Of a stretch of 32,383 nt of DNA, positions 6,501 through 9,905 are shown one piece after another. The position numbers were made by a program, and so were the translations under genes. The notes under the pieces are model-generated. The model did not search any database. It was given only the letters and a program-made list of their open reading frames with translations, and had not been told where the DNA came from. How positions within the stretch are numbered: position 1 is the first letter of the stretch; each line of letters begins with the position of its first letter. The stretch comes from a virus (taxonomy: Duplodnaviria; Heunggongvirae; Uroviricota; Caudoviricetes), in the IMG/VR virus record IMGVR_UViG_2861069343_000002, positions 1-32,383 of that record. One strand, given 5' to 3'.

Positions 6501-7345
6501 TCCGCATTCATCTCAGACGTTTTTGCGGCCTTCGCGGAATTTCCTGCCGCCGTTGCCGAGGAAGCTGCACTGCCGGCGCTCGAGGCTGCGCTCGTTTCTG
6601 ATGATTTTGCCGCCACTTTTGAAGCCGACGCATCCCGGGCTGAGGTGGCAGCTTCTGACGCTTTCGTGGTCGCGGTGGATGCAGAAGTGGCCGCAGATTT
6701 TTGTGATGCTGCGGCATTCGTTTCTGACGTTTTCGCTGCACCGGCACTGGTGGCTGCCGCGCTTTTTGAAGACTCTGCAGCGGCAGCACTTTTTGATGCT
6801 TCAGTAGCCTTTGTTGATGCCGTTCCTGCGCTGGAAGACGCTGACTGAGCCGACGACGCGGCCTGTCCGGCTGACGTGCTGGCTGCGCGTGCGGAGTCCG
6901 CAGCATCAGTCGCATGGGTTGCCGCCTCACGGGCTGATGTGCGGGCATCACTGGCTGACTTCTTCGCGGCTGCCGTGTTCTGTGCCACTGCGGACGCGTT
7001 ACGCGCCACCTCTTCCACCATCAGTTCAAAGCGGCGCAGTGCCTCCGGACGGACATCATCCTCCGTCATGGCACCGAGAAAATCATTCAGCGTACCCGGT
7101 TGTGAGTCTTCATACACGGTGATGGTCCCGGCATGCGATGGCGGGAAGCCTTCCACCAACAGAATAACGCTGTACTGACCGTACTCAACGTCCATGCTGT
7201 AACGCCCGGCTTCATCCGGGTTTTCTGAGGCCACTGTGTTCACCACCACCGTGGTGCTGTTACGTTTTGCTTTCAGCTGGATTGTACAGTTCTGTACCGG
7301 TTTACCTGCACCGTCTTTCAGTACACCTGAAATCTTTACTGCCAT
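3587..7345 (-). CDS. stf: Side tail fiber protein (lambda Stf-like N-terminus, A/S/T-rich repeat region, C-terminal peptidase S74 intramolecular chaperone domain)
   Basis: N-terminus MAVKISGVLKDGAGKPVQNCTIQLKA matches lambda Stf N-terminus as recalled. Long Ala/Ser/Thr-rich repetitive segment. C-terminal SDRDLKDDI...NGYTYT...GVIAQEV motif of self-cleaving S74 chaperone. ATG at 7345 preferred over the in-frame GTG at 7351. Confidence 0.85.
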   Translation of the reverse strand: MAVKISGVLKDGAGKPVQNCTIQLKAKRNSTTVVVNTVASENPDEAGRYSMDVEYGQYSVILLVEGFPPSHAGTITVYEDSQPGTLNDFLGAMTEDDVRPEALRRFELMVEEVARNASAVAQNTAAAKKSASDARTSAREAATHATDAADSARAASTSAGQAASSAQSASSSAGTASTKATEASKSAAAAESSKSAAATSAGAAKTSETNAAASQKSAATSASTATTKASEAATSARDASASKVAAKSSETSAASSAGSAASSATAAGNSAKAAKTSEMNADNSAQAAADSQTASANSATAAKKSETNAKNSESAAKVSETNAKASENKAKEYLDKVGGLVSPMTQYDWPVVTGNESFYIKIAKLSDPGSNNCHVTLMVTNGGDYGSPYGNIDFIEISARGLPSSLTADNVSRYLSIRRLGPTGLINSMQMRYGLVKDDGFIEVWAFQRAFINGAKVAVLAQTARTELYIPDGFVKQTAAPSGYVESPVVRIYDQLNKPTKADLGLSNAMLTGAFGLGGSGISTNGKMSDVEILKALRDKGGHFWRGDKPTGSTATIYSHGSGIFSRCGDTWSAINIDYSTAKIKIYAGNDARLNNGTFSINELYGSANKPSKSDVGLGNVTNDAQVKKSGDVMSGDLDILKETPSIRLKSAKGTAHLWFMNNDGSERGVVWSPENNESLGEIHIRAKNTKGESSGDFIVRHDGRVEARNLKITYKISAATAEFANTSTSSDNTTVSIKGSQHTPLVLTSNNTIKNLSIGFKVDDVDQKYLGIAGDGDLYFGSYSDHTKNSKVITQAKLDSGVTVGGKTTFSDLATFNAGMAGSIEPETIDNKTIDLNDLIIANTVAGSVKYYQCKTVAGGAYITNKPDGVSGNFLLRVESTRKTTGSDYAIMQTLIGSDTKRIYVRFVVNGSWTEWSQVVVSGWNQDVTVRSLTSTTPSKLGGGRVDVLGSTSDYSSMNCAVRGVDSTGTNSAWSVGTSKNTGKMLCLKNHRSSAQVLLNGDDGAVQLLSGTVNGATAQALTINKDEVNSTADLVIRKQTGTGNRFALLNSGNSELPVGIRVWGSSTRQNVFEVGTSAAYLFYAQKTSAGQLFDVNGAINCTTLNQSSDRDLKDDILVISDATKAIRKMNGYTYTLRENGMPYAGVIAQEVMEAIPEAVGSFTHYGEELQGPTVDGNELREETRYLNVDYAAVTGLLVQVARETDDRVTALEEENTTLRENLATADTRISTLENQVSELVALVRQLTGSEH

Positions 7346-8077: not shown

Positions 8078-9604
8078 TCAGCTAATCGTGATACCTGCTG
8101 TGGATTTTTTCATCACCACAACCAGCAAATCACTGATACTGGCTGTGGGATACCAGTCATTTACCAGCCACGCTGATACCGAAAACTCCAGCGTCATGTG
8201 ACCGCGACCAGCAGGCATATCAATAACACCTGTATAAACCAGCGTATTATCCAGCGCGGTACGGTTATAAATTTCAGCACCATTTTTCTTCACTATCAGG
8301 CGGCATGACGAATAAATATCGTTATTCTCCCGCTCATGTTTAGCGCCACGAAACGCCACCGCGGGAATAACAATCTGCCGGTCAAACGGCTGATCGTCAT
8401 AAACCCTGACGGTAATGGTCCCTGATGGCCACCGCTCCGGTGCACGGGAGTCCCGGGGGAAAGCTTTGCCCACTGTTTTAACGAGATCGCCTTCAATCTG
8501 GTTCGCAGACAGTTTTCCCAGAACCCGACAGTTTTCATTTATCGTGACATTGTTGAGCGTCCCGGCGTTCGCATTCACACTGCCACTGATATCCGCATTT
8601 TTCGCCGTCAGTCGCCCATCCGGTGTAAGGGAAAATGCAGGAGGATTACCGCCGCTAGTAATGGTGGGAGCCGTCAGATATTTCAGGAACACGTCGTTCA
8701 TGAATATCTGATCACCCTGACCAACAAACATCGGTTTTGTGTTGCCATTTGCAGGATTAATCATCGCAATCCTGTCTGCCGCCAGCAGCACCTGACTCTG
8801 CATGCCGTCGGGGGTGTTCTCAATACCGGCACCGATACCCGCAATATAAAGGCGTCCATCCTGCATCTGCTGCAGCTTCACAGCCCACATGCTGTTCAGA
8901 TTATTATTTGTATCAACCTGAACCTTCTGTATCTGCTGGATCGCTGCACTCTGGTCTTCCAGTTTCTTATTGACGGTCTGTGTGATTTCATTGCTGACAT
9001 CCGTAATGGATGCCTGCTCTTTAAGCTGACGGATAAACGCCACTTTCTGTCGGGTAGCCTCTTCCTCAGCCTGCGTAAGAACACGGGTTTTCGCCGTAAC
9101 CTCAGAAATCAGCGCCAGATAATCCTGCTGACCAATCCCGCCACTGTTTCTGGCCTGTCGGATCTGCTGCTGAATACGCTGTAATTCCTGCAGCCCCGCA
9201 CTGGCCTGTTTCACACTGTCAATCTGACGATAAAACGCAGCAGCTGCTTTATCCTGAGCCTCCGCCAGAGCCATGGCCTGCGCCTGTTCCTCGCGCATTT
9301 TCTGGCTCAGTGCCTCCATACGCTGGCGGGTTTTCTCCACCTCGCGGGCCATGCGTTCATGAGCCTGTGCGTTCTTCTCCACCGTCTGCGCATGGACGGA
9401 TGCGGCTGTTGCAGCCGAAGACGCCGCCTGCGTTGTCTGCCGGGCGGCCTGAGTCTGACGCTCCATAAAACGCTGCATACGGGCAGAAGACCGTTCTGCA
9501 TCGCTGGCTGCACCATTCAGAAGGTTTTTGATACGGGGAATTTCATTTTTAAACTCTGCCGCATCAATCCCCAAATCAATGACCAGGTTGGCTATCTGGT
9601 CCAT
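8078..9604 (-). CDS. Short tail ORF: tape-measure-like N-terminus (lambda H-like) continuing into a host-specificity J-like C-terminal region; probable in-frame deletion remnant
   Basis: N-terminus [19 protein letters not shown] resembles lambda H N-terminus (recalled); coiled-coil Q/A-rich middle. Position directly upstream of lom is where J ends in lambda. No M/L/K/I genes present. ATG at 9604 with SD GGAGGTG. Confidence 0.5.
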
Positions 9605-9905
9605 AACGCACACCTCCGGAAATACCTTCCCCAAGATGCATCAGTTCTTCGTCCGTTCGCTCCGGTATCCCGTTCTCTTCCGGTAAAAGGCTGAAATCAG
9701 CCACCGCAGCATCACTGCTGCCGGACACCATTCTCACGATCAATGCCTTCAGCGAGGCAAACTGCGCATCCATCCACACATCACTGAAGCTCTGCATCCG
9801 GAAATAATCGCCCCACTCACCAAGCTCAGTGGCCGACATTTCCGACAGCATCCGCCGCCAGTCTGCCCGCCGGAACTCCCGGGCAAGCCGCATGACAAAC
9901 TGCAT
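9576..9905 (-). CDS. Tail assembly chaperone T-frame segment (expressed as G-T fusion by -1 frameshift in lambda-like phages)
   Basis: ORF in -1 frame overlapping the 3' end of the G-like gene, immediately upstream of the tape-measure-like ORF; conserved G/GT arrangement. Confidence 0.5.

Follow-up and report, generated by a model that had tools for sequence, protein, structure and literature searches.

A tape-measure/tail-tip gene fusion in a defective Escherichia coli lambdoid prophage, very probably left by one in-frame deletion

The DNA analysed here (hereafter the window; 32,383 nucleotides, IMG/VR record IMGVR_UViG_2861069343_000002, Caudoviricetes) carries a lambda-like late operon on the minus strand, in which Z, U, V, G and T are followed by an ORF of 508 codons plus stop, then lom and the side tail fibre gene stf (table 1). 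The ORF runs from an ATG at 9604 to a stop at 8078−8080, and a TTG at 9634 offers an alternative upstream start that would give 518 aa. Its start overlaps the 3′ end of T by 29 nt, an arrangement found identically at the tape-measure gene of intact relatives, and its stop lies 68 nt upstream of lom. A sequence-only reading of the window had described an ORF of about 509 aa positioned right before lom; the coordinates, length and position given there hold, and the strand, which it did not state, is minus. Pfam searches of the ORF product yielded Phage_Tail_Tip (aa 221−349, E = 1e-31) and Ig_GpJ_C (aa 378−508, E = 3e-39), and no tape-measure domain. Further upstream, the end of G (window 9904−9930, minus strand) reads ...CCGGAAAAGTCCTGA; the canonical lambda slippery heptamer GGGAAAG is absent there, and GGGAAAT sits just past the G stop.

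Table 1. Features of the window, with one related fusion from another prophage (P0004).
Feature	Position	Strand	Description
Side tail fibre gene (stf)	3587−7345	−	phage_tail_N ... Peptidase_S74; intact in the window
lom, Ail/Lom outer membrane protein	7410−8009	−	Pfam Ail_Lom, E = 1e-119; directly downstream of the fusion ORF
H′-′J fusion ORF	8078−9604	−	508 aa; RefSeq WP_099010530.1, 'DUF1983 domain-containing protein' in strain IH5
J part of the fusion	8078−9010	−	codons 199−508 plus stop; equals J residues 850−1159
Tape-measure (H) part of the fusion	9011−9604	−	codons 1−198; assigned by sequence identity to intact TMP genes
Deletion junction	9011−9012	−	2-nt microhomology 'CA'
Tail assembly protein T ORF	9576−9905	−	Pfam Phage_tail_T
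Tail assembly chaperone G	9914−10300	−	Pfam Phage_TAC_2
Major tail tube protein V	10361−11104	−	Phage_TTP_12 and Big_2
Z	11513−12091	−	late operon
Other deletion junction	16277−16282	−	first Rz codons joined to sequence immediately upstream of the portal gene
N6/N4 methyltransferase	17068−18120		further methyltransferase near the defence-like island
Q	21654−22022		retained in the prophage
S24-type repressor	25566−26258		retained in the prophage
Integrase	29762−30925		retained in the prophage
P0004	L012/L013 10001−12544		related E. coli prophage with TerS and TerL present

When window positions 7300−10400 were compared by megablast with 50,697 phage records, the query fell into two parts. Bases 1−1390 of the query, covering V, G, T and the first approximately 590 nt of the ORF, matched mEp460/cdtI-type phages at 98−99% under the name 'tape measure protein', and bases 1385−3101 matched the J 3′ end, lom and stf of other lambdoid phages. 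The junction between the two was absent from all phage records, and none of the 238 matching records covered 80% or more of the query. As the intact reference we used the prophage of E. coli 2024CK-00474 (L005). Downstream of the same T gene, that prophage has a 1024-aa tape-measure protein (TMP), then M, L, K and I, a small ORF and a J of 1159 aa.

Residues 1−198 of the fusion are identical to the start of the 2024CK-00474 TMP at all 198 positions, which bears out the earlier view that the ORF starts like a tape-measure protein, and they match the TMPs of N196 and mEp460 at 195−196 of 198. The corresponding nucleotides share 99.0% identity with intact TMP genes over their first 594 nt, and the starts align colinearly. 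Lambda gpH itself is a weak match, confined to its residues 4−58 (E = 6e-4). The ORF shares with the mEp460/cdtI-type TMP, the functional analogue of lambda gpH, its N-terminal homology, its position after G and T and its T-overlapping start. However, that protein is approximately 1021−1024 aa long and the fusion retains only 198 residues, so that the C-terminal four-fifths, which sets tail length and reaches the tip, is gone.

The remainder of the ORF derives from the tail-tip gene J. Residues 199−508 match residues 850−1159 of the 2024CK-00474 J at 308 of 310 positions, with 97.9% nucleotide identity over window 8162−9010. Neither the H part against J nor the J part against H gave an alignment above noise, and the domain and identity scores of both halves far exceed chance. 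The C-terminal part also aligns to residues 798−1131 of lambda gpJ, for which structures have been solved; the J part is colinear with gpJ residues approximately 823−1132, fusion residue 199 falling at about gpJ 823, and gpJ chains in the PDB match it with E-values of 1e-99 to 3e-120. The published domain order of gpJ is hub domains, FNIII-1, FNIII-2, α-helical shaft, β-prism fibre and receptor-binding domain (RBD), with residues 841−861 among the shaft helices (PMC11101478), and by this order the retained piece corresponds approximately to shaft, fibre and RBD. The fusion thus shares Phage_Tail_Tip, Ig_GpJ_C and an end just before lom with lambda gpJ/TipJ (PDB 8IYK, 8XCJ/8XCK; A8 gpJ, 9WCA), but lacks the hub and both FNIII domains of that protein, which fall within J residues 1−849; with these missing, its product cannot form the tail-tip cone. 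Consistent with this, longer and full-length J matches carry PF24421, PF24489 and PF13550, and the fusion has none of these. The best PDB match of the fusion RBD is the fragment of A8 gpJ, a lambda gpJ chimera that was built and tested for delivery through OmpC (PMC11338833).

The two breakpoints lie 7,816 bp apart in the 2024CK-00474 prophage, and that amount is missing from the window. At the junction, H reads ...GAGCAGGCA and continues with ACCCGCC, J reads ...ATCAGGACA and continues with TCCATT, and the window reads ...GAGCAGGCA followed by TCCATT. With longer flanks, H of the intact relative reads ...AAAGAGCAGGCA before ACCCGCC..., J of the intact relative reads ...GAAATCAGGACA before TCCATTACGG..., and the window reads ...AAAGAGCAGGCATCCATTACGG.... 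The sole exact overlap is 'CA' (minus-strand reading), which lies inside an imperfect CAGG(A)CA match (6/7 nt with one gap), and there are no inserted bases or mobile-element sequence at this junction. Since 'CA' forms codon positions 2−3 of GCA (H codon 198) as well as of ACA (J codon 849), the reading frame is kept. A 2-nt overlap between colinear flanks, with no insertion and 7,816 bp missing, is the signature of a homology-independent (illegitimate) deletion, for which slippage or end joining would be candidate mechanisms. Such a deletion would join H codon 198 to J codon 850 in frame, at the cost of approximately 7.8 kb comprising H codons 199−1024, M, L, K, I, the small ORF and J codons 1−849 with the hub and FNIII domains.

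We are therefore highly confident that the ORF is the remnant of one illegitimate in-frame deletion that joined the start of H to the end of J in an mEp460/cdtI-type lambdoid prophage of E. coli, and we found nothing that contradicts this reading. An in-frame deletion fusing the 5′ end of H to the 3′ end of J is what had been proposed from the window, and the comparison of the separate halves agrees: H 1−198 and J 850−1159 each align colinearly with one of two full-length proteins from a single relative, and the junction is mapped to the nucleotide. Besides the strand, one amendment is needed, namely that the parents are mEp460/cdtI-type lambdoid genes and not lambda H and J themselves.

The rest of the prophage is also depleted. 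A tblastn search of the 32-kb window with the proteins of the 2024CK-00474 prophage (E ≤ 1e-3) found no M, L, K, I, small ORF beside I, TerS, TerL, W-like protein or Rz, while recovering portal, lom and both gene fragments as expected; the same genes are also absent from the annotation within 20 kb on either side of the junction in E. coli IH5. The proposed lack of M, L, K and I homologues is thereby confirmed, as is the suspicion that the morphogenetic region has suffered two large deletions. The other one, relative to the 2024CK-00474 prophage, removes approximately 4,057 bp (L005 8220−12277) containing Rz, a small ORF, the cos region, TerS (DUF1441), TerL and the W-like gene. 'GTA' is common to both arms at that junction, where the next base differs from the right arm in L005, and N196 and IH5 have the identical junction.

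Besides the integrase, repressor and Q, the prophage retains lysozyme, portal, protease-capsid, Z, U, V, G and T. In lambda, tail initiation requires J, I, K, L, H and M, and packaging requires terminase. Having lost TerS, TerL, the W-like gene, Rz, M, L, K, I and most of H and J, this prophage can neither package DNA nor start a tail and should be scored as defective. The defective lambdoid prophages DLP12, Rac, Qin and e14 likewise keep integrase, repressor, Q, lysis genes and some structural genes and have lost essential morphogenetic genes by deletion. Compared with the DLP12 type, the present case shows two discrete, mappable deletions in a young prophage that is otherwise 96−99.98% conserved, and its sister strains display intermediate and further-decayed states. 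Progressive deletion has been described for such 'grounded' prophages (review PMC6379469).

The closely related prophage of N196 (L004) gives some insight into the order of events. It is approximately 99.5% identical to the window on both sides and has the same terminase-deletion junction, but its H-M-L-K-I-J genes are intact. On grounds of parsimony, the terminase genes, and the spanin gene with them, were probably lost before the H-J deletion took place. A complication is the J remnant itself: the 849 nt at window 8162−9010 are 77% identical to N196 over the alignable part, as against 97.9% to the 2024CK-00474 prophage, and the C-terminal approximately 290 residues of the N196 J have 65% amino acid identity to the fusion. 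In the adjacent stf, identity to N196 rises to 99.97%. The pattern indicates that the J 3′ remnant is a mosaic patch, with an apparent swap of the RBD allele in one of the lineages, and a mismatch of this kind is typical of lambdoid mosaicism. No parent 100% identical to both flanks was found among complete genomes; given the different J 3′ allele of N196, the sampled genomes do not include the immediate ancestor, and it is parsimony that supports the order of events.

The same pattern could be read in another way, which we consider unlikely, though better placed than any other alternative discussed below. DNA from an incoming lambdoid phage or another prophage might have recombined with the resident prophage in one step, by an illegitimate join at H and a homologous crossover near the end of J, so that the deletion was made and the foreign J 3′ allele imported at once. 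The extent of the mismatch fits this idea, as the 849 nt from the junction to window 8161 are the stretch where the allele differs from N196 and both sides are approximately 99.5% identical to it. However, swaps of the J C-terminal allele are common mosaicism and could have occurred in either lineage, before or after the two split, and in prophages of the 2024CK-00474 type the two alleles, that of H and that of J, occur together in a single intact operon. The end product is the same whichever history applies.

Deletions in this region have arisen more than once. Among approximately 5.8 billion proteins searched for ones matching both halves, one other such match was found: P0004 (847 aa), in which H1−211 is fused in frame to J524−1159. 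Its junction is blunt, with 6,799 bp deleted. P0004 and the window fusion join the same two parent genes in frame, but in P0004 the H breakpoint lies 13 codons (40 nt) further on; the different junction, and its presence in a prophage that still bears terminase, make it an independent event. A frame-agnostic DNA search of complete genomes revealed a third event in strain 410 (L014 9797−11620, in a prophage at ssrA), where a truncated H, annotated as a 1,263-nt fragment, abuts a shortened lom; this prophage has RusA-to-portal and DUF2190-to-Z deletions besides. Because protein searches see in-frame fusions only, the two in-frame cases are uninformative on selection. The proximity of the two H breakpoints, 40 nt apart, led us to ask whether the site is a structural hotspot, and we dropped the idea: the repeats there are short and unremarkable, no notable hairpin signal was present (DNA fold z-score −0.67) and strain 410 breaks elsewhere. 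A further candidate fusion, P0005 (608 aa, Shigella), was rejected as an internal J-J duplication without an H part.

Concerning the product, if the late operon were transcribed, the normal H start would give a 508-aa protein consisting of a helical H N-terminus followed by the J shaft, fibre and RBD. With four-fifths of the TMP and all of the J hub and FNIII domains absent, such a protein would serve neither parental role, and we infer that the fusion is a non-functional deletion scar of ordinary prophage decay. It is conceivable, though improbable, that the ORF has instead been co-opted. Under this proposal, the H N-terminus would engage the G/GT chaperones while the J part trimerises and binds its outer-membrane receptor; made on induction or by leaky late expression, the chimera could poison the tails of superinfecting lambdoid phages as a dominant-negative subunit or, if released, block receptors as a decoy, to the benefit of the host. 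An interference role would, if true, explain at least two origins of in-frame H-J fusions.

Several features are in keeping with co-option. The ORF is unbroken and in frame, starting colinearly with intact TMP genes that it matches at 99.0%; the retained J segment begins near the boundary of FNIII-2 and the α-helical shaft; a longer soluble fragment of lambda gpJ (713−1132) folds and binds LamB with nM affinity (PMC11101478); and the G-T-fusion-lom-stf block persists in relatives that have lost further head genes. Against this, an in-frame junction is expected by chance in one case out of three, and the evidence for persistence is biased by the way in which the relatives were found. Genes of the lambda late operon are normally silent in a lysogen. 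No PADLOC defence family matched the fusion protein at E ≤ 1e-3, and the junction occurs in only one of 5,426 complete E. coli genomes, that of IH5. All carriers found have an intact ORF of identical sequence, but since they were retrieved through an exact protein look-up, this identity reflects ascertainment and is no sign of selection; with no variation among them, conservation had no power as a test of selection and was dropped as such.

Records of the exact 508-aa protein exist for 33 contigs, 23 of which we read. In the closed IH5 chromosome, 25,360 bp of which align to the window with 99.996% identity, the junction sequence is unchanged (100% identical), and the contigs read include two further ones of 4.68 and 4.69 Mb. 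Its presence in IH5 and in many contigs shows that the junction is real and inherited. An assembly artefact, in which H and J reads were collapsed, has no specific support and is hardly credible given that the same junction recurs in independent assemblies (closed IH5 and the 4.68- and 4.69-Mb contigs) that differ from one another elsewhere in the prophage. We give just as little credence to a genuine short family of tail-fibre or tip proteins with no fusion involved: the RefSeq name, being simply 'DUF1983 domain-containing protein', would allow it, but among the 5.8 billion proteins only the ORF's own cluster covers it fully, the remaining matches are limited to one portion, either J (61% of the query) or H, and the halves are 100% and 99% identical to pieces of two separate genes. 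Colinearity of the whole ORF with a single family, which the sequence-only reading had named as the finding that would overturn it, was accordingly not seen. The fusion-deletion reading has a practical consequence for annotation, in that the RefSeq entry is the product of a fusion pseudogene and an H::J label would describe it better.

Carriers of the junction have gone on to diverge. IH5 differs from the window in that an IS1 remnant truncates stf at the equivalent of window position approximately 4041 (L003 25345−25991). This remnant joins stf to a LysR pseudogene and dsbG, whereas the window keeps an intact stf and AbiL-like genes. Other carriers have further upstream deletions, each different: methyltransferase to capsid (L007), lysozyme to V (L009) and methyltransferase to the cement gene (L011). 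All three retain G-T-fusion-lom, a retention subject to the bias noted above. The locus is a new, nucleotide-resolved case of known prophage decay and represents neither a new kind of element nor a new mechanism. Taken with its relatives it forms a decay series, from the intact relative through terminase loss and H-J loss to more head-gene deletions or IS1 truncation in sister strains, which could serve studies of prophage degradation rates.

The window also carries genes resembling defence systems. Downstream of stf, on the minus strand at window 1392−3196, lies a two-gene cargo encoding a 424-aa AAA_21 ATPase, which matches PADLOC AbiLi (E = 1e-65), and a 177-aa protein, which matches AbiLii (E = 1.5e-9); judged by these matches, the pair probably forms an abortive-infection system of the AbiL type. 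Beyond the AbiL-like genes, the N196 sequence switches at position 31064/31065 (equivalent to window 763 and 28650) to a truncated yfdR-yfdQ-yfdP block with 99.9% identity to window 26650−28650, a finding suggestive of a neighbouring prophage, tandem or adjacent, and of a deletion spanning the boundary. A defence-like island at window 18713−21574, between Q and the lysis genes, encodes a DUF262/GmrSD_N protein (PADLOC NsnA, E = 6e-45; PD-T4-2_A, E = 5e-27) and a HEPN_MAE_28990 nuclease on the plus strand, beside a Dcm-type cytosine methyltransferase on the minus strand.
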